DNA of 40,060 nucleotides, from IMG/VR virus record IMGVR_UViG_2563366805_000009; one strand, 5' to 3'. The notes beneath the pieces were generated by a model. The model had not been told where the DNA came from, did not search any database, and worked only from the letters and a program-made list of their open reading frames with translations. Shown piece by piece: positions 4,006-29,294 of this stretch (position 1 is its first letter; every line of letters starts with the position of its first letter). The translations under genes were made by a program, and so were the position numbers. The DNA is from a virus. Lineage: Duplodnaviria; Heunggongvirae; Uroviricota; Caudoviricetes.

Positions 4006-4232
4006 TGGCTGATGCAATGGATCTCGTACAGCAGCGCGTTGAAGAAGAACGCCAGCGCCATATCCGTGCTGCCCGTGCCAAAACGCCGGGCGTGTCCCGC
4101 GTGCTTTGCGTTGAGTGTGAAGCGCCAATTCCGCCAGCACGCCGCCGTGCCATTCCGGGTGTGCAGCTTTGCATTACCTGTCAGGAAATCGCAGAGCTGA
4201 AAGGCAAACATTACAACGGGGGGGCTGTATGA
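4005..4232 (+). CDS. TraR/DksA-family C4 zinc-finger protein
   Basis: CVECEAPI...CITCQE (C-x2-C-x17-C-x2-C) in a 75-aa ORF; P2-like phages carry such a protein upstream of A. Confidence 0.65.
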   Translation: MADAMDLVQQRVEEERQRHIRAARAKTPGVSRVLCVECEAPIPPARRRAIPGVQLCITCQEIAELKGKHYNGGAV

Positions 4233-5086
4233 GCACCATCCTGAAATGGGCGGGAAATAAAACCGCCGTAATGTCCGAACTGAAAAAACATCTTCCTGCT
4301 GGTCCGCGACTAGTTGAACCTTTCGCGGGTTCCTGTGCTGTGATGATGGAGACGGATTATCCCTGCTATCTGGTTGCGGATATTAATCCTGATTTAATCA
4401 ACCTCTATAAAAAGGTTGCCGCTGATTGTGAATCGTTTATATCTCGCGCCAAAGTTTTATTTGAGATCGCAAACAGGGAGGTGGCTTATTACAACATAAG
4501 GCAGGAGTTTAATTACTCAACTGAAATTACTGATTTCATGAAAGCGGTATATTTCCTGTATCTCAATCGTCACGGTTACCGTGGGTTATGTCGCTATAAC
4601 AAGAGCGGGCATTTCAACATTCCCTACGGTAATTATAAAAATCCGTATTTCCCTGAAAAAGAAATTCGCGCTTTTGCAGAAAAAGCCCAGCGAGCAACGT
4701 TTATCTGCGCCAGCTTTGATGAAACGCTGGCGATGTTGAAGGCGGGGGATGTGGTGTATTGCGATCCGCCTTATGACGGTACGTTTTCCGGCTATCACGC
4801 TGACGGCTTTACTGAAGATGACCAGTATCACCTGGCATCCGTTCTTGAACATCGGTCATCAGAAGGACATCCGGTCATTGTTTCTAACAGTGACACATCC
4901 CTGATCCGTTCGCTGTATCGCAATTTTACTCACCACTATATCAAGGTAAAACGCAGCATCGGCGTAGCAGCTGGTGAGAGTAAATCAGCAACAGAAATCA
5001 TTGCTGTTTCCGGGCCGCGCTGCTGGGTGGGATTTGATTATTCGCGTGGCGTGGATAGTTCTGCCGTGTACGGAGTACGTGCATGA
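4229..5086 (+). CDS. dam: Dam-family DNA adenine-N6 methyltransferase (orphan, phage-encoded)
   Basis: N-terminal KWAGNK...EPFAGS AdoMet-binding region and catalytic DPPY motif ([10 protein letters not shown]); start chosen at internal ATG 4229, overlapping the previous stop. Confidence 0.85.
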
Positions 5087-7497
5087 GCCATGCCGATATG
5101 AGCAACTGCTGCGGCTTTAACGAGGCTGCCGCATCGTTCTCATGGAACAGCCCGAAAAAGGCCATTAACCCTTATCTGGACCCGGCGGAAGTTGCGCCGG
5201 TTTCTGCGCTTTCAAACCTGATCACTCTGTACGCTGCCGATAACGAGCAGGAACAACTGCGCCGCGAGGCACTGAGTGATCAGGTCTGGGAGCGTTATTT
5301 CTTTAATGAATCCCGTGATCCTGTCCAACGCGAAATAGAGCAGGATAAGCTCATTAGCCGGGCAAAGTTGGCGCATGAGCAGCAGCGTTTTAACCCGGAC
5401 ATGGTCATTCTGGCAGACGTCAGCGCCCAGCCCTCCCATATCAGCAAGCCGCTGATGCAACGTATTGAATACTTCAGCAGCTTGGGCAGGCCAAAGGCTT
5501 ATTCCCGCTATTTACGTGAGACGATTAAGCCATGTCTGGAACGACTGGAGCATGTACGCGACAGCCAGCTATCTGCATCTTTTCGTTTTATGGCAAGCCA
5601 TGTAGGGCTGGACGGCCTGCTGATTCTGCCTGAAATGAGTCAGGATCAGGTGAAACGCCTGTCTACCCTTGTCGCTGCGCATATGAGCATGTGCCTTGAT
5701 GCAGCTTGTGGTGATTTGTATGCCACCGATGACGTTAAGCCAGAAGAAATCCGCAAGACATGGGAAAAGGTGGCAGCGGAAACCCTGCGTCTGGATGTCA
5801 TCCCGCCTGCGTTTGAGCAACTCCGTCGGAAAAGAAACCGCCGTAAACCCGTGCCCTATGAACTCATTCCGGGTTCGCTGGCGCGTATGTTGTGCGCCGA
5901 CTGGTGGTACCGGAAATTATGGAAAATGCGTTGCGAATGGCGGGAAGAGCAGTTGCGTGCTGTCTGCCTGGTCAGCAAAAAAGCATCTCCCTATGTCAGC
6001 TATGAAGCCGTGATGCATAAACGTGAGCAGCGCCGCAAGTCACTGGAGTTTTTCCGTTCTCATGAACTGGTGAACGAAGAGGGCGACACGCTGGATATGG
6101 AAGACGTGGTAAACGCCAGCAGCAGCAACCCGGCGCACCGCCGCAATGAGATGATGGCCTGTGTTAAAGGTCTGGAGCTTATCGCGGAAATGCGCGGTGA
6201 CTGCGCCGTTTTCTACACCATTACCTGTCCGTCACGTTTCCATTCCACGCTCAATAACGGCAGACCAAACCCAACCTGGACAAATGCGACGGTAAGACAA
6301 AGCAGCGATTATCTGGTCGGCATGTTTGCTGCATTTCGTAAGGCGATGCACAAAGCCGGGTTGCGCTGGTATGGCGTGCGGGTGGCTGAGCCGCATCATG
6401 ACGGTACAGTTCACTGGCACCTGTTGTGTTTCATGCGCAAAAAAGACCGCCGCGCCATTACTGCATTGTTGCGTAAGTTTGCCATCCGTGAAGACCGCGA
6501 GGAACTGGGTAATAACACTGGTCCACGCTTTAAATCTGAGCTGATAAACCCGCGCAAAGGAACGCCGACAAGCTACATCGCGAAATACATCAGTAAGAAC
6601 ATTGACGGGCGTGGTCTGGCTGGCGAGATCAGCAAGGAAACGGGTAAATCCCTGCGTGATAACGCTGAATACGTTAATGCCTGGGCGTCTCTGCATCGTG
6701 TTCAGCAATTCCGCTTCTTTGGTATTCCGGGACGTCAGGCTTACCGTGAACTTCGCTTGCTGGCTGGTCAGGCGGCAAGGCAACAGGGTGACAAAAAAGC
6801 AGGTGCGCCGGTACTGGATAACCCGCGTCTTGATGCCATTCTGGCTGCTGCTGATGCTGGTTGTTTTGCCACCTACATCATGAAGCAGGGCGGCGTACTG
6901 GTTCCCCGCAAATATCACCTCATCAGAACCGCTTATGAAATCAACGAAGAGCCAACCGCCTATGGCGATCACGGTATTCGTATTTATGGCATCTGGTCAC
7001 CCATTGCAGAGGGCAAGATCTGCACTCATGCAGTGAAGTGGAAAATGGTTCGTAAGGCCGTTGACGTTCAGGAGGCGGCAGCCGACCAGGGCGCTTGCGC
7101 CCCTTGGACTCGTGGCAATAACTGTCCCCTTGCTGAAAATTTGAACCAACATGAGAAAGATGAATCAGCAGATGGGGATACCAGAACGGACATTACCTGC
7201 ATGGATGACAAGGAATTGCACGATTACCTGCACAGTATGAGCAAAAAAGAGCGCCGGGAACTGGCAGCAAGATTGCGCCTGGTTAAACCGAAACGGCGTA
7301 AAGACTACAAACAGCGAATTACAGAGTATCAGCGTCAGCAGCTCGTCTATGAACTGAAGTCCAGAGGATTTGATGGCAGCGAGAAAGAGGTCGATTTGCT
7401 CCTTTGCGGTGGCAGTATTCCGTCAGGAGCAGGCCTGCGTATCTTCTATCGGAACCAGCGTTTGCAGGAAGATGATAAGTGGCGGAACATGTATTAA
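5083..7497 (+). CDS. A: Replication initiation endonuclease (P2 gpA family, rolling-circle)
   Basis: 804-aa ORF; HWHLL (HxH) motif and conserved Tyr-containing regions typical of gpA-type Rep; position after dam/TraR genes. Confidence 0.85.
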
Positions 7498-7591
7498 TCA
7501 CGCGGGTTAACAATTCGTGCTCTTAATAATACCAGGCATATCAGGCTGATGAACGTAAAAAAACGTTTTACATCAGTAAGATTATTATATA

Positions 7592-7607
7592 CTGTAAATA
7601 TAAACAG
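7592..7607. promoter_or_regulatory. LexA (SOS) box CTGT-N8-ACAG upstream of small ORF
   Basis: Sequence TACTGTAAATATAAACAGTG (7590..7609) matches consensus TACTGTATATATATACAGTA at CTGT/ACAG and an A/T-only spacer; about 45 bp upstream of ATG 7651, which has an AGGAGG RBS. Confidence 0.55.
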
Positions 7608-7749
7608 TGGTTATATGTACAGTATTGCGTATGGTGTTATAGGAGGAAAGATGCAGGACTATTTTTTGGAGTCTTTGAAGCTCCAGCGCATTGATTTTTT
7701 TCTTAAGCTTGTAGCGGCTAGTGAGTGTAGTGATGAAGAGAAGGGGCTA

Positions 7750-8902
7750 AATAGCTGCGCGGAATAGTAGATCACTGAAAGGGAACTCAGCCCGGATTGT
7801 GCGATCTGATCAATCGCCAAACCAACCAAAATCACCAACCGGACTGAGCGATGCCGATCATAGTACCAATACCCCGTGGCGAACGACGCCTGATGCAGAA
7901 AGCTATTCATAAAACGCGTGATAAAAATCATGCCCGCAGACTCACGGCCATGCTGATGCTTCATCGGGGTGAACGGGTCAGCGATGTTGCCAGAACTCTC
8001 TGTTGTGCCCGTTCATCCGTTGGTCGCTGGATTAACTGGTTTACGCACTCAGGTATTGAAGGCCTGAAATCCTTACCCGCAGGGCGCTCCCGACGCTGGC
8101 CTTTTGAACATATCTGCACCCTGTTACGTGAGCTGATAAAGCATTCTCCCGGCGATTTTGGTTATCAACGTTCACGCTGGAGCACCGAATTACTGGCAAT
8201 AAAAATCAATGAGATAACCGGTTGCCAGTTACATGCAGGAACCGTTCGCCGCTGGTTGCCATCTGCGGGGCTTGTATGGCGCAGGGCCGCGCCAACTCTG
8301 CGTATCCGTGACCCACATAAAGATGAAAAGATGGCGGTAATCCACAAAGCGCTGGATGAATGCAGCGCAGAGCATCCGGTATTTTATGAAGATGAAGTGG
8401 ATATCCACCTTAATCCTAAAATCGGTGCGGACTGGCAGTTGCGCGGACAGCAGAAACGGGTAGTGACGCCGGGGCAGAACGAAAAATACTATCTGGCCGG
8501 CGCACTGCACAGTGGCACGGGTAAAGTCAGCTACGTGGGCGGCAACAGCAAAAGTTCAGCGCTGTTTATCGCTCTGCTGAAGCACCTGAAAGCCACTTAC
8601 CGGCGGGCGAAAACAATCACGCTGATCGTTGATAACTACATTATCCATAAAAGCCGCGAAACACAGCGCTGGTTGAAAGCAAATCCCAAGTTCAGGGTAA
8701 TTTACCAGCCGGTTTACTCGCCGTGGGTGAATCATGTGGAACGGCTATGGCAGGCACTTCATGACACGATAACCCGTAATCATCAGTGCCGCTCAATGTG
8801 GCAGTTACTGAAAAAGGTCCGCCATTTTATGGAAACCGCCAGCCCATTCCCCGGAGGAAAACATGGTCAGGCAAAAGTGTAGCGGTATTAGGCGCAGCTA
8901 TT
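7750..8902 (+). mobile_element. IS630-family insertion sequence (1153 bp) with TA target duplication in a CTAG target
   Basis: Terminal inverted repeats AATAGCTGCGC at 7750..7760 and 8892..8902 (reverse complement); TA at 7748..7749 and 8903..8904; flanks reconstitute C-TA-G; single 343-aa transposase ORF; length equals IS630 as recalled. Confidence 0.85.
7851..8882 (+). CDS. IS630-family (Tc1/mariner-like DDE) transposase
   Basis: 343-aa ORF with HTH N-terminus and DDE-type C-terminus (…VDNYIIHKS…), inside the TIR-bounded element. Confidence 0.9.
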   Translation: MPIIVPIPRGERRLMQKAIHKTRDKNHARRLTAMLMLHRGERVSDVARTLCCARSSVGRWINWFTHSGIEGLKSLPAGRSRRWPFEHICTLLRELIKHSPGDFGYQRSRWSTELLAIKINEITGCQLHAGTVRRWLPSAGLVWRRAAPTLRIRDPHKDEKMAVIHKALDECSAEHPVFYEDEVDIHLNPKIGADWQLRGQQKRVVTPGQNEKYYLAGALHSGTGKVSYVGGNSKSSALFIALLKHLKATYRRAKTITLIVDNYIIHKSRETQRWLKANPKFRVIYQPVYSPWVNHVERLWQALHDTITRNHQCRSMWQLLKKVRHFMETASPFPGGKHGQAKV

Positions 8903-9026
8903 TAGCTCTGCAGTGGGTTTCTGAATTGACTGATGAGTTGATGGCGAAAATTCGAAGCCATGAATACAGTAGGTCGATGGATGTAATCAGTTGAGCTTGT
9001 TTCGTTAGGACTTGATAAGGGAACCG

Positions 9027-9049
9027 AAAAGGGGCATTAAGCCCCTTTC
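9027..9049. terminator. Bidirectional Rho-independent terminator-like hairpin
   Basis: AAAAGGGGC-ATTAA-GCCCCTTT, T-rich on the plus side and A-run (T-run on minus) on the other; lies between the interrupted small gene and the convergent lipoprotein gene. Confidence 0.45.
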
Positions 9050-9061
9050 TCATAAGTTGAT

Positions 9062-9361
9062 TTAGTTGTTCCCCAAAGAGCCGGCCATGGCTGCATATTT
9101 AATTTCTTCGCTGGGTATTTCAGGATGTAGTTGAATTTGCCTGATGATATAGCCAGGAACTTCGTCACTCCACAGTTTCGCCGCGTCCTTACAGACCTTA
9201 TACGCGAAGTCTCTATTCTCAAAGGCATAGGATTTTCCGTATGCATATTGCTGACAGGCATGAACATAAGCTCCGAAGTCGCCGTCTTTATCTGGCAAAG
9301 CACATCCAGCTAAGGCTATGATGATTGCTACTAACGTAAAGGAGAAAGTTATACGTTTCAT
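9062..9361 (-). CDS. Small lipoprotein (99 aa), function unknown
   Basis: Signal peptide with lipobox (LAGC) at N-terminus; ORF track. Confidence 0.6.
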   Translation of the reverse strand: MKRITFSFTLVAIIIALAGCALPDKDGDFGAYVHACQQYAYGKSYAFENRDFAYKVCKDAAKLWSDEVPGYIIRQIQLHPEIPSEEIKYAAMAGSLGNN

Positions 9362-9469
9362 GGTCTCTTTCTAAGCGTTTAGCATTATTTAACTAAGGGG
9401 TATCTGCCGTGATTTGGTAGTCCCTGATATATATTCTCAGGGACTATGCTGAAGTAGCTTTAATTTTGA

Positions 9470-10276
9470 TTATTTAGAAAGGTACTTATCTCTAAGTTGA
9501 TTCAGTCTGTCAGCATCGCGTTCTGAAAACTCGGCGTCACCATAGATCGATTTCCCATCTGCGTCTTCAAGGCCAATGACTGTGACGGTAAATATAGCAT
9601 CAGCCGGAACTTTAAGTTTTCCCCAATCAGAGTATCTATTAGGGGCTAATTTCCAGTTGGCTTTCTCACCTGGTTCCAGACCTCCAGAAATTTTATAGTT
9701 GAAGACGTCAGAGAACCAAGGGACGCTTCTTCCTGGGCTGGCAATAACTCCTTTGAAGAATACTCTGGCAACCGCTTTGTCTGTTCCGTTTTCAACGCTA
9801 ATATCCAGAATTGGCTGATCATTGCCGTAATCCTCTTTCTGGAAATAAAAACGGGAACGTTCGACCTTGAAGGCTTTCATTTTTTCCGCAGCCTGTGTTG
9901 CAGAGGTTTGTTTGGCTTCCAGTTCTTTTATTTCTTGCAGAGCCTGTTCTTTCTCTCTCTTCTCACGCTCAAGGCGAATAGTTTGTGCGTAATTTATAAC
10001 CTCATCACCAGTTTTACCTTCCAACGCTGACTTAATTTTTGTTTCGTAGACGTCCCCAGAAGACGTTCCAGCCTGCATTAGCTCTCTCATGTTGATTTGG
10101 CTAAAGGCAACGACTTTAACTGCATCATCAAACTGAGCTTTTTTATCTGCAGGTAAGGACTCTCTTACTTTTTGAATGGACTCTTTCATCGACTGATCGC
10201 TTGATGCATCGATCTTCGGTTTGTCACAAGCAGTAAGCAGCAGAGCAAAAGCAATTACGCCAGTTAATTTCTTCAT
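9470..10276 (-). CDS. Lipoprotein (268 aa), function unknown
   Basis: Start moved to internal ATG (MKKLTGVIAFALLLTAC…, lipobox LTAC); charged coiled-coil-like middle region; ORF track 9470..10348. Confidence 0.6.
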   Translation of the reverse strand: MKKLTGVIAFALLLTACDKPKIDASSDQSMKESIQKVRESLPADKKAQFDDAVKVVAFSQINMRELMQAGTSSGDVYETKIKSALEGKTGDEVINYAQTIRLEREKREKEQALQEIKELEAKQTSATQAAEKMKAFKVERSRFYFQKEDYGNDQPILDISVENGTDKAVARVFFKGVIASPGRSVPWFSDVFNYKISGGLEPGEKANWKLAPNRYSDWGKLKVPADAIFTVTVIGLEDADGKSIYGDAEFSERDADRLNQLRDKYLSK

Positions 10277-10437
10277 ATCCCTATCCCAATCGTAAAAAAA
10301 CAAGGCTAATCCTAACAGGATTAGCGGGCATGACAAACTCATAGCCATATAGGTGTGCTGTATAAATTAGCGGGATGAGAAAGCCTGCACAGACCCTCAT
10401 GTTGAAACTTGATTTTAGCTCAAAAGAGCTGACACTA

Positions 10438-10618
10438 AATAACTGCGCGGAATAATGTTCCACTTTCGGTTAGCCCTTGGCCCTTGGCTCTTGCTGGGTA
10501 AGGCGTGGGGCCGTTTTCTTCGCCTGATCCTGCTGTATCTGGCCTACAGTATGTTGTCCTTACGCGACATGCCACATGTCAGTAAACGGCAGGTGTAGCA
10601 GTATTAGACGCAGCTATT
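10438..10618 (+). mobile_element. 181-bp MITE-like element with IS630-type terminal repeats, TA duplication in a CTAG target
   Basis: Left end AATAACTGCGCGGAATAAT matches the IS630 left end at 7750 (2 mismatches); right end GTGTAGCAGTATTAGACGCAGCTATT matches the IS right end (2 mismatches); TA at 10436..10437 and 10619..10620; flanking C…G; no ORF inside. Confidence 0.6.
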
Positions 10619-10805
10619 TAGTGTGTATTAAGCTGGCTCATATTTATGACTGGTTTCAAGGTTTGACCGATTTTCATGTCATGCATGTCTATGCTGCATG
10701 AGTTCGCATGATCGTTTGAGGATCGGTTTGGCTAAGACATGCCAGAACTGGCGGGCTTTTGCTCATGTCATGCAGGTGCATGAAAACTACTACATAAAGC
10801 GGGCA

Positions 10806-10824
10806 GGCGTGGCGGGGATACGAG
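10806..10824. other. Probable cos site (19-nt cohesive-end region) of the P2/186-family phage
   Basis: GGCGTGGCGGGGATACGAG resembles the recalled P2/186 cohesive end GGCG(A/T)GGCGGGGAAAGCA(C/T) over the first 13 nt; lies between the A-side accessory region and the portal gene, as in P2. Confidence 0.4.
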
Positions 10825-10983
10825 CGCGCGCTCGCTTAGTTTTGTAACACTCTGAGTAAGGTCGCTTTTTAGAAGCAAATGGCTTGCAAATTTTTTCAAC
10901 ATTGAGGTAATTTGTTAGGTATCGAAGGATAAATTAAGACAAGAGCAAATTCTTATTGCTTTTTGGATGACTAGGTGCAAGTT

Positions 10984-12090
10984 ATGACAGGTAGTGTCCC
11001 AGTAGTGCTTTCTGAGTCTGAGTTAAAGTCGATCTTGACCTTAACTGAACGTTTCACATGGAACGTTGCAAGGCCAATTATTGCGTCTTTAGGGCTGCCA
11101 ACAGGTAGGGGGCGTGAAGCAACAAACGAAAAAATACTAGAAAGCCTCATTGATCTTAAAAGTAAAGATAGGCAAAAGTTTGATGGCATTATGGCAAACG
11201 TAAATGACCTAATTTTGGGTCAGGTCGTTTATGGTGAAAAAGCAATATTTAGTTTGACTGTAGATAATAGTGTAATTAAAACACTAAATGACAGATTTAG
11301 TTTCCAATGGAATTTGATGAATCAACCATCATTATTGGTTGATTCGATCCTTGATGATGTCCAATTGCAAAATGCTGTAAAAAATCAACCTGAACTTGTT
11401 AATTATTCTATTCAAAACACCCAGTCAATACTTGTTTTTTCATCTGTCAGAGAATTAGTTGTAAGAGAAAAAATTCCCCCGTCAGCACTTGCGCAATACA
11501 AGCAGTTTGATGAAATTATTGCAAAGCGAAAAGAAAAGCGACAATGTTTTGATGTCTGTATATTAGACTCTGTTACTAATAAAATTCATGTTTTGGTAGA
11601 TACTAATGGTAATATTATTGGTGATAATGTTACTTTTGCAAAGAGTAACATTATTCGTGAATTGTATAATCATGTCGGTTATGAATTTAAATCATCGGAA
11701 AAAGATTTTTATCCGTTAATTGAGCCAATTTTCAAACAAAATTCATTGCCTTATTCAAAATTAAGCTATAAAGTCTTTGATTTGTCATTTTTGACGAATG
11801 AGGGGACTACGCATAAAGAAAAGAAAAATGTGGCCACTAAAGACTTACGTGATGATTTGTTTAATAAGGAAGGCATCAAAGCAGTAGGCAGTATTGGTTT
11901 GTATCGTATTGGAATTAGAGTTGATAGAAATAATCCAAAACTGCAATTAGCGGATAACGTAGAGCTTATCATTCCGGGAACACTCCGCAGGCATCTAGGA
12001 GGGAGTAGTTGCTCTCCTGTTAACTATGCTATATTAAGTAAATGTATATCCAAAGATGATTTCGAAACCCTCACAAAGCTGATATTATAA
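10984..12090 (+). CDS. Hypothetical protein, gene 1 of AT-rich three-gene operon (368 aa)
   Basis: ORF track 10975..12090 (GTG); ATG 10984 preferred, AGGTG RBS 6 nt upstream; no P-loop, no nucleotidyltransferase GS…DxD or RT YADD motif seen by eye; strongly AT-rich. Confidence 0.6.
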   Translation: MTGSVPVVLSESELKSILTLTERFTWNVARPIIASLGLPTGRGREATNEKILESLIDLKSKDRQKFDGIMANVNDLILGQVVYGEKAIFSLTVDNSVIKTLNDRFSFQWNLMNQPSLLVDSILDDVQLQNAVKNQPELVNYSIQNTQSILVFSSVRELVVREKIPPSALAQYKQFDEIIAKRKEKRQCFDVCILDSVTNKIHVLVDTNGNIIGDNVTFAKSNIIRELYNHVGYEFKSSEKDFYPLIEPIFKQNSLPYSKLSYKVFDLSFLTNEGTTHKEKKNVATKDLRDDLFNKEGIKAVGSIGLYRIGIRVDRNNPKLQLADNVELIIPGTLRRHLGGSSCSPVNYAILSKCISKDDFETLTKLIL

Positions 12091-12102: not shown

Positions 12103-12537
12103 ATGAAGGATGGTGATATGCCCAAGATCATCAAAGAAATGTGTGCAGAACGCCCTGAAATTGGGGCGTTAGCTTGCTATTTGTACGATGAAATCGAGGC
12201 AAGGGCTAAAAAATCATCAAATATAGCTTTAAGTTATAAGGATTTATTTAATATAGCTGGTGGTTATAATAAGGTTTTACAGCCAGAAACGTATGAGCAG
12301 GTTATCTATCCGGCCATACAAATTCTTTGTAGCCCAAAGGTTGATTTTTTAAAACTCAATTATTGGTTCATTGATGATTTTCATGACCCTGTAGAACTTG
12401 AAATAGAGGAAGTTATTGAGGCGGAAATCAGTCAATCTTTAGCAAACCCATTTACAGGGGAGCTTATGTATGACTATAAGTCATTCGTATTTCCTTTTTT
12501 TACATTAGATGAATCTAAATCAAAGGATATTATCTGA
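12103..12537 (+). CDS. Hypothetical acidic protein, gene 2 of operon (144 aa)
   Basis: ORF track 12091..12537 (TTG); ATG 12103 with GGAG 6 nt upstream; begins 12 nt after gene 1 stop. Confidence 0.55.
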   Translation: MKDGDMPKIIKEMCAERPEIGALACYLYDEIEARAKKSSNIALSYKDLFNIAGGYNKVLQPETYEQVIYPAIQILCSPKVDFLKLNYWFIDDFHDPVELEIEEVIEAEISQSLANPFTGELMYDYKSFVFPFFTLDESKSKDII

Positions 12538-13202
12538 TGTTAAAAATGTCTGCAGCAATGAGTTTGGCTGATATTGATAATGATATTTTTCTTCAGCGTA
12601 TTAATGCTTCTATTACTCGTGTTAGATTTGCACTTCAATCGTACGATAATTTCAAACAATTTGTCAGGATTGAACTTGATTCTGCTGTAAAGGAAATAGA
12701 AGAGAATTCAAATAAGTTAAACTTCGATTTAACAGAAGATCAGCTTACTTTAATTTTATTGGCCAATATCAAAAATAAAGATATGGGCATTGAAGCATTT
12801 CATGAAAATAATCAGCGCGGACATTGTGATATTACAATAAAACTAAAGGATTATATTTGGCATGGCGAAGCCAAAAAACATACATCTTCATATAGTTATT
12901 TATTTAAAGGGTATGCTCAACTCACTGAACGATATAGTACAGGGACCGTAGACAGCGCAAGTGGTGGATTGATTATCTATACTCGTAATAGAAAATGTAA
13001 TGAAATGATGAGCAACTGGAAGGCGCATTTAGATAAATTCGCACCAAGAATTCATGCCTGTAAATCTATAACGATTACTCCTTGTCAAAAAAATCCATTG
13101 GTTTTTTATAGCCAGCATGTTCACACAGTTACTCAACTGAATTATGAAGTTATTCATTACCCTGTAAATCTATATCATGAGCCTGTAGATCCGGATCTTT
13201 AA
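12537..13202 (+). CDS. Hypothetical protein with PD-(D/E)xK-like nuclease motif, gene 3 of operon (221 aa)
   Basis: Start overlaps gene 2 stop (TGATG); motif …AFHENNQRGHCDITIKLKDYIWHGEAKKH (E…D-x13-E-x-K). Confidence 0.55.
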   Translation: MLKMSAAMSLADIDNDIFLQRINASITRVRFALQSYDNFKQFVRIELDSAVKEIEENSNKLNFDLTEDQLTLILLANIKNKDMGIEAFHENNQRGHCDITIKLKDYIWHGEAKKHTSSYSYLFKGYAQLTERYSTGTVDSASGGLIIYTRNRKCNEMMSNWKAHLDKFAPRIHACKSITITPCQKNPLVFYSQHVHTVTQLNYEVIHYPVNLYHEPVDPDL

Positions 13203-13242
13203 GTTTTAATGCTCATGTCTTGGTGATTTTAAACTAAAGAAT

Positions 13243-13270
13243 AAAAGCCTGTTTGTACAGGCTTTTAAAT
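13243..13270. terminator. Bidirectional Rho-independent terminator between operon and portal gene
   Basis: Perfect 10-bp inverted repeat AAAAGCCTGT/ACAGGCTTTT with 4-nt loop, T-run after the stem on both strands. Confidence 0.5.
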
Positions 13271-13271
13271 A

Positions 13272-14309
13272 TCATTCAATACCTAAATTATAATCTTCAA
13301 AACGCATGACTTCTTCTCCAAGCCAGTCGTTCAATTCCTGAAGGCGCTTCTGCAGAGGTATCAACTCGTTGCGAACAAAGACGCGGCTGGCTTTCTCCAC
13401 ATCCCCAAAACCCCCAACATTACTCGGCATAATCCCCATCATTTGCGGCGGCACACGATGTGCTGCCATCATGTCATCCCGACTCACGTTCTTGATATTC
13501 AAAAACTCATCCTTCGCTGCGACCTCTGACAACGGGATAATCTGAAGTCCGTCCTTTTTGCCGTTAGGCGAGTACATAAACAGATTGCGGAAGTTGCCAG
13601 GGCCTTTGGCGCTTTTCATTGCGTTGCGGAGGTTGTTCACATCTTCCTGGTTCTGCGCGGCATCGGTCATATACATGATGAAGCCTGCATGGCTACCGTT
13701 AATGTAATACTTGCGGCGGAACAGCGTGGCGGACTCGTTGAGCAGGGCTGACGGAATGGCAGAAAGATAACCGGGCAGGCCGTAGATCTCCTGGTTGATG
13801 TCCGGTTCCATCAGATGAAAAATGCTGCCTTTCGTGAACTGATACGGCAGGGTTGTCATACCGTATTGCACAAACCAGTAGGTATCCAGGTCTAATCCGC
13901 GTCGGGTGTATTTTGCAAGCGCAGGCTCAATAGCGATAACTTCACCGAATCGGTTCGTGCGTTTCTCCAGGTAGGCGTTACCAAATACCAGATAGTCCTG
14001 CACAAAACGCGAAAAAGCCTGCTGGCTGAGCAGCGGATGAGGGATATAGGTACTGGTCAGAATGTTGCACTTTACTGCAATCGGGGAACTGTGATGCACG
14101 GCGGCGCGGAAGGTGCGCGCCAGTCCGTCAAAGCTGACGGGCGGCTCATACCAACGGTCCATCTGTACGCATTCCACATAATCCAGCAGTTCTCGGCGGT
14201 CCAGAACAGGAACGGGATCGCCGAAGCTGAATGCTTCGGCTGTAGTTTGACTTTTAAGCTGGATCTGTTTCGTCGCCGCAGCGCGGTTCTTCTTACTCTT
14301 TCCCATCAA
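13272..14309 (-). CDS. Q: Portal protein (P2 gpQ family)
   Basis: 345-aa ORF, size and position match P2 Q; overlaps the terminase gene start/stop. Confidence 0.9.
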   Translation of the reverse strand: MMGKSKKNRAAATKQIQLKSQTTAEAFSFGDPVPVLDRRELLDYVECVQMDRWYEPPVSFDGLARTFRAAVHHSSPIAVKCNILTSTYIPHPLLSQQAFSRFVQDYLVFGNAYLEKRTNRFGEVIAIEPALAKYTRRGLDLDTYWFVQYGMTTLPYQFTKGSIFHLMEPDINQEIYGLPGYLSAIPSALLNESATLFRRKYYINGSHAGFIMYMTDAAQNQEDVNNLRNAMKSAKGPGNFRNLFMYSPNGKKDGLQIIPLSEVAAKDEFLNIKNVSRDDMMAAHRVPPQMMGIMPSNVGGFGDVEKASRVFVRNELIPLQKRLQELNDWLGEEVMRFEDYNLGIE

Positions 14310-16072
14310 AAAATCTCCACAATATTGCTGGTATTGGCGGATTCGCCCTGCAGCGGTTCGTTAAACAGTGCGTGCATCGTTGCCCAGGCCAGATCGGCGT
14401 GGCTGGCTTCTTCGCTGCGGCTGGCTTCATAGGTCGGGCGGTTGCCACTGGCGGTGGTGGCGCGACGGATTGCCATAAAGGACTGCGCTATGTCGGTGTG
14501 TCCGGCGTCAAACTCCAGACGGCGGTGGCTGATAATGTCGTAGGCCTTGAGTACCAGGGCGTTTTTAACGTTGGGGTTGTAGACAAACTCCCGGACGGCA
14601 GGAAAAAACGCTTTCACGTTCTCGTAAACCCCGTGACCAACGCCGGTTGAGTCGATACCGATATAGGTCACGTTGTACTGTTCGGTCAGTTTTTTGATGG
14701 CGTCAGCCTGGGCGCGGAAGTCCATTCCGCGCCACTGGTGACGCTCAAGAATGCGGAACTTACCGCCCGGCACGGCTGGCGGCGCCACCACCACGCATCC
14801 GGCGCTGTCGCCGTTCTGCGTACCTTTCGCCGGGTCATATCCGATCCACACTTCGCGCCAGCCAAACGGGCGCAGGGCCAGTGCATGAAAGTCGGTCCAG
14901 ACTTCCCAACTGTCCACCATGCACGCCTGCAGCTCGCTGAGTGGGAACACAGACGCGAGATCGTCCACGAACTCACACATCAGCAGGTTCTGGTATTCGT
15001 CCGGGCTGTACTCCATGCGCAACTGGTCGAGGTCGAACAGGTTACAGCCGCCGCGCACCGCATCTTCCACAGTGACTATCTGGCGGTACTGCCCGTCTGC
15101 GCACAGCAGGCCGGGGGCCAGATTGCTGTGGGACAGGTCGATGTCCACCTTATCGGCTTTGCTGCGCCCTCGGTTGAACAGCGCACCGGACCAGAACGGA
15201 TAAGCACTGTGTGTCAGGCTGGATGGCGTGGAAAAATAGGTTTGTCGCCATTTTTTGTGAATAGCCATACCGGAAGCCACTTTGCCCAGCTCCTGGAATT
15301 TCGGTATCCAGAAATATTCATCCAGATACAGGTTGCCGTGGTAACTCTGGGCCGTGCGGGCATTGGTGCCGAGGAAGTACAGCGTGGCCCCGTTAGGAAG
15401 CACCATCGGATCGCCTTTCAGCTCCACCTCCACTTCTTTGGCGAAGTCGATGATGTACTGCTTAAAGACGTGGGCCTGAGCCTTGCTGGCGGAAAGGAAA
15501 ATCTGGTTACGCCCGGTTAGCAGGGCGTCAATCAGGGCTTCACGGGCAAAATAGAAGGTCGCGCCGATCTGGCGTGACTTCAGCAGGTTGCGGATGCGGT
15601 TGGTTTTTCCGGCTTCCCACCAGTGGCGCTGGTAGTTGAACATGGAGGAATGGAAGATTTCTTCCAACTTCTCAATCTGTTCATCGGTGAAAACGTTCTT
15701 TTCCGGCTGACGGCGCGGGCCTTTGTTGCGGTTGGCGACGTTAGGGTTTAAGTCGGCTTCGTTGCCGCCATTGTTAAACTTGCCGATCCGCGCATGGCGC
15801 TCCGACTGGCGCGCCAGCAGGTCAATCTCTTTGAAATCTTTCCCTTCTTTGTGCTCCTTCATAATGAGCTGGCAGTAGCGTGCGGCGGTGGTGAGCTGCA
15901 TCTGATCAAGCGGCCCATAGTCACCCCACTTGTCGCGTTTTTTCCAGCTGTGAACGGTTGCAACTTTCTCGCCCAGCATTTCAGCAATGCGGGCTACGCG
16001 GTATCCCTGAAAGTACAGCAGCATGGCCTGCCGACGGGGATCGAGATCTGCGGGTGTCAGTGTGGTGTTCAT
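14306..16072 (-). CDS. P: Terminase large (ATPase) subunit (P2 gpP family)
   Basis: 588-aa ORF adjacent to portal, N-terminus …TPADLDPRRQ… like P2 gpP as recalled. Confidence 0.9.
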   Translation of the reverse strand: MNTTLTPADLDPRRQAMLLYFQGYRVARIAEMLGEKVATVHSWKKRDKWGDYGPLDQMQLTTAARYCQLIMKEHKEGKDFKEIDLLARQSERHARIGKFNNGGNEADLNPNVANRNKGPRRQPEKNVFTDEQIEKLEEIFHSSMFNYQRHWWEAGKTNRIRNLLKSRQIGATFYFAREALIDALLTGRNQIFLSASKAQAHVFKQYIIDFAKEVEVELKGDPMVLPNGATLYFLGTNARTAQSYHGNLYLDEYFWIPKFQELGKVASGMAIHKKWRQTYFSTPSSLTHSAYPFWSGALFNRGRSKADKVDIDLSHSNLAPGLLCADGQYRQIVTVEDAVRGGCNLFDLDQLRMEYSPDEYQNLLMCEFVDDLASVFPLSELQACMVDSWEVWTDFHALALRPFGWREVWIGYDPAKGTQNGDSAGCVVVAPPAVPGGKFRILERHQWRGMDFRAQADAIKKLTEQYNVTYIGIDSTGVGHGVYENVKAFFPAVREFVYNPNVKNALVLKAYDIISHRRLEFDAGHTDIAQSFMAIRRATTASGNRPTYEASRSEEASHADLAWATMHALFNEPLQGESANTSNIVEIF

Positions 16073-18126: not shown

Positions 18127-18777
18127 ATGAGCCTGAGTCCCGCACGGCAGCATCGCCTGCGCGTTCAGGCTGAACAGGCCGCCCGCGAGGGCGGCAGCGT
18201 TCGCCACGCGTCGGGCTATGACCTGATGCTGCTGCAACTGGCGGAAGACCGCCGCCGTCTCAAGGGCGTTCAGTCCACGGTCAAAAAAGCGGAAATCAAG
18301 GTGGAGCTGCTGCCGAAGTACGCCGCTTGGGCGGAGGGTGTCCTGGCTGCCGGAGGCGCTCAACAGGATGACGTGCTGATGTACGTGATGCTGTGGCGCA
18401 TTGATGCCGGAGATTATGCCGGGGCGCTGGAGATCGGGCGTCACGCCCTGCGTCATGGCTGGGTGATGCCGTTAGGTAACCGCAACGTGCAGACCGTGCT
18501 GGCAGAGGAAATGGCAGATGCAGCCCAGAGCGCAATGCTTGCCGCCACCGGCTTTGATGCCGATCTGTTGCTGCAGACCCTGGAGCTGACAGACGGTATG
18601 GATATGCCGGACCAGTCACGGGCGCGTCTGCATAAAGCGATTGGCGCTGTCCTGAGTGAAAGAAATCCGGCGTCTGCCCTTAATCATCTCAACCATGCGT
18701 TACAGCTCGATCCCCGCTGTGGCGTGAAAAAAGACAAACAGCAGCTGGAGCGCAGACTGCGCAATGACAGCCGCTGA
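18127..18777 (+). CDS. M: Terminase small/endonuclease subunit (P2 gpM family)
   Basis: 216 aa; LEIGRHALRHG… region resembles gpM. Confidence 0.85.
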   Translation: MSLSPARQHRLRVQAEQAAREGGSVRHASGYDLMLLQLAEDRRRLKGVQSTVKKAEIKVELLPKYAAWAEGVLAAGGAQQDDVLMYVMLWRIDAGDYAGALEIGRHALRHGWVMPLGNRNVQTVLAEEMADAAQSAMLAATGFDADLLLQTLELTDGMDMPDQSRARLHKAIGAVLSERNPASALNHLNHALQLDPRCGVKKDKQQLERRLRNDSR

Positions 18778-24518: not shown

Positions 24519-25897
24519 GCACAAAATTTTATACCCTGCTGACGGATATTGGCGCGGCGAAACTTGTCAGCGCCGCCGCGCTCGGTGTGCCGCTAAAAAT
24601 TACCCATATGGCGGTGGGCGATGGTGGCGGAACATTGCCGACGCCGGACGCAAAGCAGAGTGCACTGGTAAATGAGAAACGTCGGGCTGCGCTGAATATG
24701 CTCTATATCGACCCACAGAACAGCAGCCAGATTATTGCTGAACAGGTGATCCCTGAAAACGAGGGCGGTTGGTGGATACGTGAAGTGGGCCTGTTTGATG
24801 AGTCAGGGGCATTGATTGCCGTGGGCAACTGCCCGGAAAGCTATAAGCCGCAACTGGCTGAAGGCAGCGGGCGTACCCAGACCGTGCGCATGGTGCTGAT
24901 TACCAGCAGCACGGACAATATCACCCTGAAAATCGACCCTGCTGTAGTGCTGGCAACCCGCAAGTATGTGGATGACAAGGCACTGGAGCTGAAGGTGTAC
25001 GCGGATGATCAGATGGCAAAACATCTTGCCGCACCGGACCCGCATTCACAGTATGCAGCCAAAGAAAGTCCTACGTTTACCGGGACACCCAAAGCGCCAA
25101 CGCCAGCGACGGGGAATAACACCACGCAGGTTGCGACCACCGCATTTGTTCAGGCGGCACTGACGGCTCTTATTAATGATGCGCCAGCCACGCTGGACAC
25201 GCTGAAAGAAATAGCCGTAGCCATTAACAATGATCCGAAATTCAGTACCACCATTAACAATGCGCTGGCACTGAAAGCGCCGCTGTCGAGTCCGGCACTC
25301 ACCGGAACGCCAACCGCACCGACTGCGGCACAGTCGGTCAACAATACACAGATTGCCACCACGGCATTTGTGAAATCGGCGATTGCGGCAATGGTGGGTT
25401 CTGCACCTGCGGCACTGGATACACTGAACGAACTGGCGGCGGCGCTGGGGAATGACCCGAACTTTGCCACGACAATGCTTAATGCACTGGCAGGTAAACA
25501 ACCGCTGGACAATACGCTGACTCATTTGAGTGGAAAGGATGTTGCTAGTCTTCTCGCATACCTTGGTTTGGGAGAAGCGGCAAAACGGAATGTGGGAACA
25601 GGGGAAAATCAGATACCTGATATGTCATCATATGCATCAGGTTCAGGCTGGCGAAAAATGCCAGATGGTTCAATTGAACAGTGGGGACGAATTAGTTTTC
25701 CTGGTGAACACGGGCCTGTATCCGCCAATGTTTCATTCCCGATTCCATTTACACAGACACCTGGCATTGTAATTGTGTGCGATGGTGGTTTCGGGGGCGG
25801 GAATATGTGGGGGGCGACCAACTGGAGCACTACCGGCTTCATAGCTCACTGCAATTATGGTCTTGAAGGTGGTGCGTTTTTCGCTAAGGGCTGGTAA
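24515..25897 (+). CDS. H: Tail fibre protein H: constant N-terminal part fused to the currently expressed variable C-terminal segment (25565..25897)
   Basis: 460 aa; conserved N-terminus [17 protein letters not shown]…; repeats …TTAFV…; crossover site lies inside the gene at 25551..25576. Confidence 0.85.
25551..25576. other. Invertase crossover site (left, inside H): TTCTCGCATACC-TT-GGTTTGGGAGAA
   Basis: 26-bp imperfect dyad with central dinucleotide, resembling hix/gix/cix/pix sites (…AAACC-NN-GGTTT…); marks the left end of the mirror symmetry. Confidence 0.55.
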
Positions 25898-26340
25898 TGA
25901 TGAAATATCTGTACGTAAACAACCTGGCATATCCTTACGAACTTCAGTCTCTTTATGTTGAAAAAGGTGAATGGCCTGAAGAAAAAGGTGTTGATATAGA
26001 CGAAGTAATTTTCAGGGAATATTTCTATGACACACCACCAGAAGGAAAATACAGATGTGTTGGAGAAGATGGACTGCCTGCATGGGCAGATATTCCTCCA
26101 CCAACACGTGAAGAACAAATTGCATCAGCCGAAACTAAAAAGCAGCAATTGATTAATCAGGCCAACGATTATATGAACAGTAGACAATGGGTTGGTAAAG
26201 CGGCTATTGGTCGTCTGAAAGGTGAGGAACTGGCGCAATATAATTTGTGGCTGGATTATCTGGACGCACTGGAGCTGGTCGATACTTCCGGTGCACCAGA
26301 TATTGAATGGCCTACGCCTCCGGCAGTTCAGGCCAGATGA
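25897..26340 (+). CDS. Tail fibre assembly protein (Tfa) for the expressed fibre tip
   Basis: 147 aa directly after H stop (ATGATGAAA overlapping); size and C-terminal conservation typical of Tfa. Confidence 0.75.
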   Translation: MMKYLYVNNLAYPYELQSLYVEKGEWPEEKGVDIDEVIFREYFYDTPPEGKYRCVGEDGLPAWADIPPPTREEQIASAETKKQQLINQANDYMNSRQWVGKAAIGRLKGEELAQYNLWLDYLDALELVDTSGAPDIEWPTPPAVQAR

Positions 26341-26914
26341 CATCCGGCGCGGTGCTGGTATCTGTTGCCGTCACCGCGTCAATGTAATCCAGCACGGCGT
26401 TAAGGCGGGTTGTTTCTGCCTGCGTCAGCTTCCGTCCGGCCTGTAATTTCAGTTGAATCAGACTGATGGAGGCCATTGCAGTATCAATCAGCGACTGGCG
26501 CTGTGCTTCTGCTGCATCTACTGCTGCGCCGTGCTGTGCCTCAGTATCGGTCACCCATTTCTCACCATCCCATTTATCGTATGGCGTTAACGGGGCGATA
26601 GTGGTTGTATTTTCAGGGTAATCACCCGGAGTTGTGATTTCTTTGGCTTCTCCCGTTTCGGTGTTATAGACGATTTCACCGCGATGGTCTGGCACATATT
26701 CCCATGAGTTAAAATCTGCAGAACGGCAGATAGCATAACCAGCCTTATATGTGCCTGGTGAATCTAAACAGGAATATGCCGGGATACCAACACCAACGGC
26801 AAGATATTCATTTGAAGTGGAAATATATTCCCGTATTTCACCATCATAGTTATAGACGGTAATATTCCCTGCCTTCGTGGCAATAATCTCGCTATTTAAT
26901 ACAGCGTTATCCAT
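26312..26914 (-). CDS. Tail fibre assembly protein (Tfa) of the alternative fibre
   Basis: 200 aa, convergent with the other tfa; follows the alternative fibre tip on the minus strand. Confidence 0.75.
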   Translation of the reverse strand: MDNAVLNSEIIATKAGNITVYNYDGEIREYISTSNEYLAVGVGIPAYSCLDSPGTYKAGYAICRSADFNSWEYVPDHRGEIVYNTETGEAKEITTPGDYPENTTTIAPLTPYDKWDGEKWVTDTEAQHGAAVDAAEAQRQSLIDTAMASISLIQLKLQAGRKLTQAETTRLNAVLDYIDAVTATDTSTAPDVIWPELPEA

Positions 26915-27393
26915 TATGCAGCCCTCACAATATAATTAAAGGCAATGTTACGTGGGCGGTTCTCATTTGCGGTTGGGACAACGGCTGAAGCATTAAAATT
27001 CGCATACAGGGAGCGTTGATACCCGGATGCTGATGCACCACTTAATGCGGGAGCTTTTGACTCCGAAGCCGAAAAGGCCCCTGACACGTATCCTAATAAC
27101 CCTTGTGAATCGCCAATTGAACTGTAGCCAACCACCCCGGTAATGTTTCGGATAGCATCTCCTTGTGCTGAAAGCAGAGTTCGCCCACTATCCACTCCCT
27201 TTCCACCATCCCAGCCACGAATAAACTCACCGCGTAAATCAGGCAATTTTAACGTCGGGTAAGCCTTTGCCAGATTAGGGTAATCTTCAGCAGAAAAAGC
27301 CGCACCGTTGCATTTCAGCCAGCCTGTTGGCGGTGTGGCTGAAGGCCATGGAACAGGCACACCAACAGGCAGCGCAGAGCCTTCCCCTAAACC
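26914..27393 (-). CDS. Alternative tail-fibre C-terminal segment (promoterless; becomes fused to H after inversion)
   Basis: In frame from the crossover core (…GLGE-GSALPVGVPVPWP…); the ORF-track N-terminal extension (MHFSQPVGG…) is antisense of the copy-2 coding sequence and is not considered real. Confidence 0.6.
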   Translation of the reverse strand, partial: GLGEGSALPVGVPVPWPSATPPTGWLKCNGAAFSAEDYPNLAKAYPTLKLPDLRGEFIRGWDGGKGVDSGRTLLSAQGDAIRNITGVVGYSSIGDSQGLLGYVSGAFSASESKAPALSGASASGYQRSLYANFNASAVVPTANENRPRNIAFNYIVRAA

Positions 27394-27407
27394 AACGTTT
27401 AAGAAAA
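27382..27407. other. Invertase crossover site (centre 1): TTCCCCTAAACC-AA-CGTTTAAGAAAA
   Basis: Outer half identical to the pin-proximal site's outer half; inverted relative to the left site. Confidence 0.5.
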
Positions 27408-27437
27408 TGCAGAGGTGTGGAAAGGATGTTGCTAGTC

Positions 27438-27463
27438 TTCTCGCATACCTTGGTTTAGGGGAA
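27438..27463. other. Invertase crossover site (centre 2): TTCTCGCATACC-TT-GGTTTAGGGGAA
   Basis: Outer half identical to the H-internal site's outer half; direct repeat of the left site, 1887 bp downstream. Confidence 0.5.
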
Positions 27464-27931
27464 GGCTCTGCGCTGCCTGTTGGTGTGCCTGTTCCATGGC
27501 CTTCAGCCACACCGCCAACAGGCTGGCTGAAATGCAACGGTGCGGCTTTTTCTGCTGAAGATTACCCTAATCTGGCAAAGGCTTACCCGACGTTAAAATT
27601 GCCTGATTTACGCGGTGAGTTTATTCGTGGCTGGGATGGTGGAAAGGGAGTGGATAGTGGGCGAACTCTGCTTTCAGCACAAGGAGATGCTATCCGAAAC
27701 ATTACCGGGGTGGTTGGCTACAGTTCAATTGGCGATTCACAAGGGTTATTAGGATACGTGTCAGGGGCCTTTTCGGCTTCGGAGTCAAAAGCTCCCGCAT
27801 TAAGTGGTGCATCAGCATCCGGGTATCAACGCTCCCTGTATGCGAATTTTAATGCTTCAGCCGTTGTCCCAACCGCAAATGAGAACCGCCCACGTAACAT
27901 TGCCTTTAATTATATTGTGAGGGCTGCATAA
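27452..27931 (+). CDS. Second copy of alternative tail-fibre C-terminal segment, preceded by a 31-bp fragment of the H constant region
   Basis: Identical protein to the 26914..27393 segment; ORF-track start 27308 is an antisense artefact. Confidence 0.55.
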   Translation, partial: GLGEGSALPVGVPVPWPSATPPTGWLKCNGAAFSAEDYPNLAKAYPTLKLPDLRGEFIRGWDGGKGVDSGRTLLSAQGDAIRNITGVVGYSSIGDSQGLLGYVSGAFSASESKAPALSGASASGYQRSLYANFNASAVVPTANENRPRNIAFNYIVRAA

Positions 27932-28533
27932 TGGATAACGCTGTATTAAATAGCGAGATTATTGCCACGAAGGCAGGGAATATTACCGTCTATAACTATG
28001 ATGGTGAAATACGGGAATATATTTCCACTTCAAATGAATATCTTGCCGTTGGTGTTGGTATCCCGGCATATTCCTGTTTAGATTCACCAGGCACATATAA
28101 GGCTGGTTATGCTATCTGCCGTTCTGCAGATTTTAACTCATGGGAATATGTGCCAGACCATCGCGGTGAAATCGTCTATAACACCGAAACGGGAGAAGCC
28201 AAAGAAATCACAACTCCGGGTGATTACCCTGAAAATACAACCACTATCGCCCCGTTAACGCCATACGATAAATGGGATGGTGAGAAATGGGTGACCGATA
28301 CTGAGGCACAGCACGGCGCAGCAGTAGATGCAGCAGAAGCACAGCGCCAGTCGCTGATTGATACTGCAATGGCCTCCATCAGTCTGATTCAACTGAAATT
28401 ACAGGCCGGACGGAAGCTGACGCAGGCAGAAACAACCCGCCTTAACGCCGTGCTGGATTACATTGACGCGGTGACGGCAACAGATACCAGCACCGCGCCG
28501 GATGTCATCTGGCCTGAACTGCCGGAGGCGTAG
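27931..28533 (+). CDS. Tail fibre assembly protein, duplicate copy
   Basis: Identical 200-aa product to 26312..26914. Confidence 0.7.
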   Translation: MDNAVLNSEIIATKAGNITVYNYDGEIREYISTSNEYLAVGVGIPAYSCLDSPGTYKAGYAICRSADFNSWEYVPDHRGEIVYNTETGEAKEITTPGDYPENTTTIAPLTPYDKWDGEKWVTDTEAQHGAAVDAAEAQRQSLIDTAMASISLIQLKLQAGRKLTQAETTRLNAVLDYIDAVTATDTSTAPDVIWPELPEA

Positions 28534-28948: not shown

Positions 28949-29280
28949 TACCAGCCCTTAGCGAAAAACGCACCACCTTCAAGACCATAATTGCAGTGAG
29001 CTATGAAGCCGGTAGTGCTCCAGTTGGTCGCCCCCCACATATTCCCGCCCCCGAAACCACCATCGCACACAATTACAATGCCAGGTGTCTGTGTAAATGG
29101 AATCGGGAATGAAACATTGGCGGATACAGGCCCGTGTTCACCAGGAAAACTAATTCGTCCCCACTGTTCAATTGAACCATCTGGCATTTTTCGCCAGCCT
29201 GAACCTGATGCATATGATGACATATCAGGTATCTGATTTTCCCCTGTTCCCACATTCCGTTTTGCCGCTTCTCCCAAACC
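28948..29280 (-). CDS. Second copy of the H variable C-terminal segment (promoterless, inverted)
   Basis: Identical to H residues [11 protein letters not shown]…AKGW; in frame to the crossover core at 29281..29282. Confidence 0.55.
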
Positions 29281-29294
29281 AACGTTTAAGAAAA
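29269..29294. other. Invertase crossover site (right, pin-proximal): TTCTCCCAAACC-AA-CGTTTAAGAAAA
   Basis: Inverted relative to the left site; lies about 55 bp upstream of the invertase gene, as gix/cix/pix sites do. Confidence 0.55.

Follow-up and report, generated by a model that had tools for sequence, protein, structure and literature searches.

A probable cos site of the P2/186 type, and a three-gene cargo operon between cos and the portal gene, in a Fels-2/SEN8-like prophage of Escherichia coli

The stretch of DNA considered here (the window) is the whole 40,060 nucleotides of IMG/VR virus record IMGVR_UViG_2563366805_000009, and holds a P2/186-like prophage inserted in the E. coli chromosome, with rcdA on its left flank and ybjL/ybjM/grxA on its right. 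A candidate cohesive-end (cos) site at 10806 lies between the replication gene A (gpA, 5083-7497) and the leftward-reading Q-P genes, whose 3' end faces it, an order kept in all 74 related loci that are informative. The portal gene Q (13272..14309, minus strand) matches Pfam Phage_portal and is labelled 'phage portal protein' by the Prokaryotic Genome Annotation Pipeline (PGAP), while P (14306..16072, minus strand), with matches to Pfam Terminase_5, Terminase_6N and Terminase_6C, encodes the large (ATPase) subunit of terminase. The genes for scaffold, capsid and the rest come after P. The terminase endonuclease or small subunit, a homologue of gpM and the presumed reader of the cos arm, is encoded at 18127..18777 on the plus strand, as annotated by PGAP for the identical gene of strain MS 115-1. 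Q, P and M are all intact, and a cognate portal and both terminase subunits are thus present on the same element. Between cos and Q sits a three-gene operon, discussed below; the 2.9 kb that span cos and this operon are 100% identical in five complete genomes, including those of MS 115-1 and ECONIH4.

The predicted 19-nt 5' cohesive end (the cosN core), GGCGTGGCGGGGATACGAG, occupies 10806-10824 on the plus strand and occurs only once in the window. It has the form GGCG[A/T]GGCGGGG followed by seven further nucleotides, and when a degenerate P2/186-type pattern was searched for with up to two mismatches, 10806-10824 was the sole match in the 40 kb, against 0.01 expected from shuffled sequences. 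For a base-for-base comparison we built cos junctions by joining the right and left ends of the P2, 186, PSP3 and P4 genomes, for which cohesive ends are annotated. In this alignment the window 19-mer agrees with the cohesive end of 186 and PSP3 at 15 of 19 positions and with that of P2 and P4 at 14 of 19. The same 19-mer is found in Fels-2, SopEPhi, Yersinia phage MLG42, E. coli phage 813R9 and Klebsiella phage Kp4845-2. As relatives we took the 80 IMG/VR loci with the closest Q proteins (at least 92% identity); 74 of these show the motif, while the contigs of the other six stop short of it. The 19-mer is identical in 71 of the 74 and ends in T in the remaining three, and in all 74 it lies downstream of Q. 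The 35,203-bp record of Salmonella phage SEN8, a temperate phage that forms particles, begins with exactly the window 19-mer (positions 1-19, labelled 'putative cos site'), and its right end terminates exactly at the base equivalent to 10805. The SEN8 announcement gives ggcgtggcggggatacgag as the cos site, identified by annotation rather than by end mapping (PMC5427200).

A cos site had been proposed at this position in the first-pass annotation, on the resemblance of the 19-mer to the P2/186 cohesive end, together with the suggestion that the region be aligned with the cos regions of related phages. Such an alignment of ten regions (the window, the P2, 186, PSP3 and P4 junctions, and five BLAST relatives) stays colinear over a stretch that starts about 125 bp to the left of the cohesive end and stops 7 bp beyond its right edge. 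Given this homology to cos sites defined by experiment in P2, 186, PSP3 and P4, and the identity to the annotated cos of SEN8, the proposal holds well: 10682-10831 is very probably a functional-type cos site of a Fels-2/SEN8-like prophage of the P2/186 family (Peduoviridae). Only the short length of the 19-mer speaks for a chance GC-rich match to the P2/186 cohesive end, a reading to which we give next to no weight in view of the shuffling result, the 91 phage records that match colinearly over 150 bp (described next), and the position relative to Q maintained in every informative locus.

The limits of the conserved block can be placed to the nucleotide. When the window and the 74 loci are anchored on cos, column conservation jumps at 10682 and drops sharply at 10832, and the BLAST matches to the 91 phage records span exactly the same 150 bp, 10682-10831 (plus strand). 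In E. coli genomes that have the same operon with other cargo to its left, the match likewise begins at 10682. The block is 87-92% identical to its counterparts in SEN8, Fels-2 and related Peduoviridae, and consists of 124 bp on the side of the replication gene, the 19-nt cohesive end, and 7 bp (CGCGCGC, 10825-10831) on the portal side. To its left, 10621..10681 is spacer DNA without conservation and forms part of the cargo on the left (replication) side; here column conservation is only 0.3-0.6 and relatives diverge fully. A scan of 10300-11100 against Rfam gave no match at E<=1. Within the block, 10777..10831 (plus strand) aligns without gaps to the 55-bp core shared by P2 and P4, running from TGCAT.AAAAC through the cohesive end to GCGCGC. 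This core is attributed to Ziermann and Calendar (1990) in two later papers (PMC5694545, PMC3931495), one of which describes it as needed for packaging (PMC3931495). Within the core the window departs from the clade consensus only at 10788, with a variant carried by six of the 75 sequences.

The cohesive end is flanked by two symmetric half-sites, and the whole of 10798..10832 is presumed to be the nicking site of terminase. The half-sites read AGCGGGCA immediately before GGCG on the top strand and AGCGCGCG immediately before CTCG on the bottom strand, with a consensus of AGCGSGCR before each predicted nick. In the window, P2, 186, PSP3, P4 and a Providencia P4-like element, [A/G/T][G/C][C/T]G[G/C]GC[A/G] precedes both nicks. 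That exactly 7 bp are conserved to the right of the cohesive end is explained by the half-site that precedes the bottom-strand nick. Symmetric sequences at the ter sites of P2 and 186 were reportedly described by Murray and colleagues in 1977.

A plausible scheme for packaging can be put together from these parts. After excision and replication, a terminase made up of the gpP ATPase and the gpM endonuclease subunit would recognise the block and introduce two nicks 19 nt apart, one separating 10805 from 10806 on the top strand, the other 10824 from 10825 on the bottom strand. Each nick would follow an AGCGSGCR half-site, leaving GGCGTGGCGGGGATACGAG as 5' single-stranded ends, and the whole genome would be packaged, assuming that this prophage can produce particles. 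In such a scheme the 124-bp arm on the replication side, with its invariant (T)GCAT motifs, would serve as a recognition (cosB-like) arm, and the portal side of cos would need only its 7 bp. The operon had been placed on the 'packaged-genome side of cos' in the first-pass annotation, a phrase without meaning for an element packaged from cos to cos; the operon simply lies at the left end of the virion DNA. By analogy with phage lambda, the arm-bearing end would be packaged first and the Q end would be last in and first out, in agreement with the accompanying idea that the operon is injected first. In the accessible literature, including papers that cite Chattoraj and Inman (1974), we found no statement of which end is tail-proximal in P2-type phages.

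Repeated CATG-rich motifs upstream of the cohesive end had also been pointed out, and these are real. There are nine copies of CATG in 10670-10790, where 0.47 would be expected (Poisson P about 2e-9), and these 120 nt hold the highest count of GCATG/CATGC in the window. TGCATG is under-represented across the window as a whole (20 occurrences, 46 expected), yet five of the 20 fall within 103 bp at the cos arm. The 12-mer given among these motifs fares less well. Both copies of TCATGTCATGCA are present, at 10674 and 10763, within a 20-nt direct repeat of 85% identity, but relatives do not conserve the first 8 nt of the left copy (10674-10681), which precede the 150-bp block. As a 12-mer, then, the repeat is in part a coincidence; what relatives keep are shorter (T)GCAT(G) motifs. 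GCATGA is found at 10696, 10706 and 10778. A distal cluster at 10682..10710 (plus strand) comprises TGCATG at 10682, TGCATG at 10695 and GCATG at 10706, and a proximal motif, TCATGCAGGTGCATGAAAAC, lies at 10768..10787 (plus strand), with TGCAT.AAAAC forming the left edge of the 55-bp core. None of the ten aligned regions, those of P2, 186, PSP3 and the satellite P4 among them, shows any change in TGCAT at 10695, GCAT at 10706 or TGCAT.AAAAC at 10777. Across the 75 sequences the first two of these are more than 90% conserved, and a fourth motif, at 10682, is a conserved feature of the Fels-2 clade. Because the motifs are conserved and one-sided, we infer that they make up the recognition arm for the gpM homologue, with the distal cluster as candidate gpM sites.

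Terminase or a regulator had both been suggested as the protein that binds these motifs. The first is plausible, the conserved arm adjoining the cohesive end directly; the second is disfavoured, as the motifs are kept whatever genes flank them. Regulatory signals do adjoin cos in this family, the old-tin transcript of P2 beginning about 150 nt left of cosR, and the block is composite, with two conserved GATC sites (10710, 10721) and a terminator-like hairpin besides the motifs. Moreover, gpM is not known to bind GCAT motifs. The old promoter of P2 lies outside the conserved block, however, and the motifs persist regardless of the genes on either side. They are invariant even in P4, which has only cos in common with its helpers (PMC9122126). 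That the motifs are operators or promoter elements of the neighbouring cargo, or other regulator sites, rather than packaging recognition elements thus seems to us distinctly improbable.

The hairpin just mentioned (10735..10762, plus strand) is a degenerate, terminator-like structure inside the arm, recognised from its variants among relatives and their fold energies. In relatives it reads GGCCCGCCAG-AA-CTGGCGGGC followed by TTTTGC, with some two-sided compensatory changes, and in the window there is a weak terminator-like match at 10740-10753. It looks like an intrinsic terminator for rightward transcription. Among 72 loci, not corrected for relatedness, the hairpin is stronger where the nearest upstream open reading frame (ORF) points to cos (median -19.3 versus -12.2); in the window that ORF points away from cos. 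In the ten-region alignment P2, with old/tin reading away from cos, is without a good hairpin. Because hairpin strength follows the direction of the upstream ORF, and P2 lacks a good hairpin, our tentative reading is of a terminator, not a packaging signal: it would keep transcription out of cos and degenerate where that is not required.

Besides the putative nature of the gpM-GCAT link, several observations weigh against a working cos site at 10682-10831. In the literature, mapped virion termini were found for no phage with the exact 19-mer, this prophage included, the cos of SEN8 being annotation-based. The window form of the hairpin has three uncompensated substitutions in its left arm (10737, 10739, 10740) and a fold energy of -6.1 kcal/mol, as against -19.3 for the common form; this is the weakest of the set, otherwise seen only in L015, L025 and L036 of the related loci. 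The excised genome would be about 37.2-37.4 kb including an insertion sequence (IS), some 11% larger than P2 (33.6 kb) and some 6% larger than SEN8. There is also no DinI/Tum-like gene between A and cos, unlike the situation in Fels-2, SopEPhi, MLG42, 813R9 and 186. From these points one could argue that the site is a cos by descent that no longer works, in an element made defective or unpackageable by its size (to which the 1.155-kb IS630-family insertion, not present in MS 115-1, contributes), by the three substitutions in the arm hairpin, or by the lack of an induction pathway, there being no Tum/DinI antirepressor gene. On the other side, the 55-bp core is only the one position (10788) off consensus, and the parts of the block free of the hairpin have fewer consensus differences than those of many relatives. 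The hairpin itself varies widely among relatives and behaves more like a terminator than like a packaging element. The head, terminase, lysis and tail genes are all annotated as intact in the identical MS 115-1 copy, and a 37.3-kb record does exist, that of the distantly related Aeromonas phage LPM4. On balance a defective element is unlikely, though of the alternatives to a working cos site it is the one that we take most seriously.

The remark in the first-pass annotation that the element must still meet a packaging size limit was a fair one, given an excised genome of the size just stated. That size depends on which of two candidate attachment repeats is used, and shifts by less than 200 bp between them. 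A 14-mer direct repeat at the prophage borders, AACAAAAAACCCAT, occurs about 87 bp left of position 1 and at 37283-37296, and would give about 37.4 kb; a 21-mer, GCTGCCGCCAYTTTGTCGCCA, occurs at 20-40 and 37207-37227, and would give about 37.2 kb. This 21-bp direct repeat, GCTGCCGCCA(C/T)TTTGTCGCCA, has its copies within the 3' end of int and immediately downstream of ogr. The IS is a recent insertion of about 1.155 kb in the left-hand cargo, carrying a transposase gene of the IS630 family (DDE_3) at 7851-8882, and the prophage of MS 115-1 is otherwise identical. The insertion may affect packageability. As the prophage is without a DinI/Tum-like gene, it may not be inducible by the SOS response in the manner of 186. 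What occupies 7500-10681 instead is a 99-residue ORF and a minus-strand gene for a DUF6694 lipoprotein (9470-10348).

Two further features of the prophage were noted in passing. The GATC sites at 10710 and 10721, 11 bp apart in the cos arm, are conserved in the Fels-2 clade and not in P2, 186 or P4, and the prophage has a Dam-like (MethyltransfD12) methylase gene of its own at 4169-5086; methylation could conceivably influence packaging. Further along, 25897-29916 holds mirror-image pairs of tail-fibre and tail-fibre-assembly ORFs on opposite strands, beside a 190-residue ORF (29344-29916), and looks like an invertible host-range segment of the shufflon or Gin/Cin type.

Turning to the DNA between cos and Q, the distance from the cohesive end to the portal gene stop is 167 nt in P2, 176 nt in 186 and 178 nt in PSP3, and is filled by a terminator only, whereas the window has a spacer of 2447 nt. 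The first-pass annotation was thus right that the operon sits where P2 is nearly free of spacer, but this placement is the norm for the clade rather than unusual. Among the 74 loci the spacer ranges from 159 to 3497 nt with a median of 1668, and only two are P2-like in being shorter than 250 nt; the length seen in the window recurs in L015 and L058. There are 50 distinct spacer lengths on the Q side and 34 on the A side, and in 37 of 69 loci the stretch from cos to Q exceeds that on the A side. The contents vary as well. Fels-2 has a 565-residue protein between cos and Q, SopEPhi two ORFs, 813R9 a Ymh-domain protein, phage 500465-1 a TIR protein, and SEN8 a hypothetical protein with an HNH endonuclease. 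Across the 74 loci, with about 50 different cargos, the cargo begins at the same nucleotide, 10832, 7 bp past the cohesive end and at the border of the nicking half-site. At the other end, the last codons of Q (13272-13290) differ among close relatives, with matches stopping at residues 340-345, and anchoring the relatives at the Q stop codon gave no right-hand breakpoint. Because the 3' end of Q is itself variable, the right-hand boundary of the cargo lies inside it and not at the intergenic terminator.

Foreign DNA could thus, in principle, replace everything from 10832 through to the last Q codons with packaging unharmed, and it is because replacement there would leave packaging intact that 10832 to Q, and the region left of the arm, could act as cargo hotspots. 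Hotspots at this place are not new. The phiRSY1 paper refers to cosL-Q as a suggested hotspot, citing Dodd and Egan (1996) and Nakayama (1999) (PMC5694545). Rousset et al. (2022) described the gpA-gpQ region adjoining cos as a hotspot with 1,650 arrangements, and their Table S5A holds the arrangement of the window, IS included (NZ_KE137155, with the DDE_3 transposase) (PMC9122126). As to what drives the exchange, one candidate is the DNA end generated by terminase, through recombination or joining at cut cos ends, on which Rousset et al. speculated (PMC9122126); we consider it rather improbable. Ordinary homologous recombination between the cos block and the 3' end of Q, combined with selection for a minimal cos, could produce the same pattern. 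In a weaker variant, placement at the extreme left terminus could let the AT-rich operon be expressed from the DNA that enters first.

The cargo operon of the window has a GC content of 34%, as against 55% for Q-P. It opens with a leader (10832..10983, plus strand), also 34% GC, from the first base of which all relatives diverge. The leader contains TTGCAA (10884)-N18-TAATTT, a candidate weak promoter judging from its sequence, and, ahead of the ATG at 10984, the ribosome-binding site AGGTG; a consensus promoter scan of the leader gave no site matching at 9 or more of 12 positions. CTTGCAA(A)TTTT is also found upstream of the same module in a Rosenbergiella prophage (L097, below). Gene 1 (10984..12090, plus strand) encodes a 368-residue protein with an RdgC-like fold. 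Gene 2 (12103..12537, plus strand) encodes a small helical protein of about 139-144 residues with a match to phrog_11490; its start is the ATG at 12103 in Table S5B of Rousset et al. or that at 12118 according to PGAP, and phmmer matches it to designed armadillo-repeat proteins with E-values down to 1e-7. Gene 3 (12537..13202, plus strand) encodes a 221-residue PD-(D/E)xK nuclease of the BamHI/OkrAI fold. A palindromic bidirectional terminator with an 11-bp stem (13242..13267) separates the operon from Q, in the place taken by tQ/tW in P2/186.

No match for the three cargo proteins was found with PADLOC, Pfam or NCBIfam. A DNA-binding protein paired with a nuclease, at a hotspot for defence genes, may hint at an anti-phage function. 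The operon is entered in Table S5B of Rousset et al. as un-named system #91, found 36 times, and is not among the systems tested (PMC9122126). We considered whether it might be the validated '3 hypothetical proteins' (anti-P1) system of the same authors, and rejected this, as the sequences appear only in Table S5 and not in the table of tested systems.

The same three-gene module is also found away from this position. In a Rosenbergiella P2-like prophage (L097 6001-8204; 8360-8500) it lies on the replication side of cos, in the order DinI, module, cos-like block, 138 nt, Q. The cohesive end of that prophage is divergent and apparently shorter, with GGCGGGCGGGCGAG before CGCGCGC. In a Providencia P4-like satellite (L096 6001-8224; 10623) the module lies between the primase gene and psu. 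As it occurs on both flanks of cos, and in a phage as well as in a satellite, its position relative to cos is not fixed.

Set beside known systems, the site belongs most closely with SEN8/Fels-2 (Felsduovirus) and with Peduoviridae of Klebsiella, Yersinia and E. coli, which resemble the window in the 19-mer, the position of cos relative to Q, and the presence of cargo between cos and Q. These relatives differ in the identity of the cargo on both sides, and the window has a weakened arm hairpin and an IS in its left cargo. The cos sites of P2, 186, PSP3 and P4 agree with that of the window in the 19-nt GC-rich 5' end, the AGCGSGCR half-sites, the 55-bp core, the (T)GCAT motifs and the orientation relative to Q-P, while the last 6 nt of the cohesive end differ (ATACGAG in the window, AAAGCAC/T in the other four). 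The experimental definition of this type of cos is said to go back to Padmanabhan in 1974 and to Ziermann and Calendar in 1990, and P2-type terminase was reportedly found by Pruss et al. in 1975 to use monomeric circles, a point of difference from lambda. The comparison with lambda cos (cosN/cosB/cosQ) is one of analogy. Staggered nicks at a partly symmetric site, 5' cohesive ends and a one-sided recognition arm would be common to the two, but there is no sequence homology, and the overhang is 12 nt in lambda and 19 nt here. The putative recognition arm of the window would stand at the right end of the mature genome, whereas that of lambda stands at the left. The invariant GCAT motifs are repeated and confined to one side, but have no homology to the lambda R sites; any equivalence to the small-terminase binding repeats of a lambda-type cosB, which also has an IHF site, is conjectural.

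For the cargo, there are parallels in the retronphages carrying retrons Ec67 and Ec86 (Dodd and Egan, 1996) and in phiCTX with its ctx gene (Nakayama, 1999). According to the phiRSY1 paper, these also have foreign genes in place of the DNA between cos and the Q/W terminator of a 186-related prophage, as in the window, the cargo being a retron or a cytotoxin rather than an operon with an RdgC-like protein and a nuclease (PMC5694545). Among the cos-adjacent hotspots for antiviral systems of Rousset et al. (gpA-gpQ in P2, psu-int in P4), cloned P4 loci break right after GCGCGC, as the window does, and in the available portion of that work gpA-gpQ is treated as a single hotspot, with the two sides of cos not separated (PMC9122126).

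Both the cos site and the arrangement of its cargo are already known for the P2-like family, so that the finding, while correct, is an ordinary one, and the current understanding of P2-type packaging is unchanged by it. It does fix the predicted ends of the virion genome for an E. coli prophage present in strains including MS 115-1 and ECONIH4, and it gives nucleotide-level limits for cos in the Fels-2/SEN8 clade, namely the 19-mer with 124 bp on its replication side and 7 bp on its portal side. As a site for cargo, the portal side of cos is in this clade no less active than the replication side, a distinction between sides that the published hotspot surveys, in their accessible parts, do not draw (PMC9122126). 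The more interesting object here is not the cos site but its neighbour, the uncharacterised three-gene operon.
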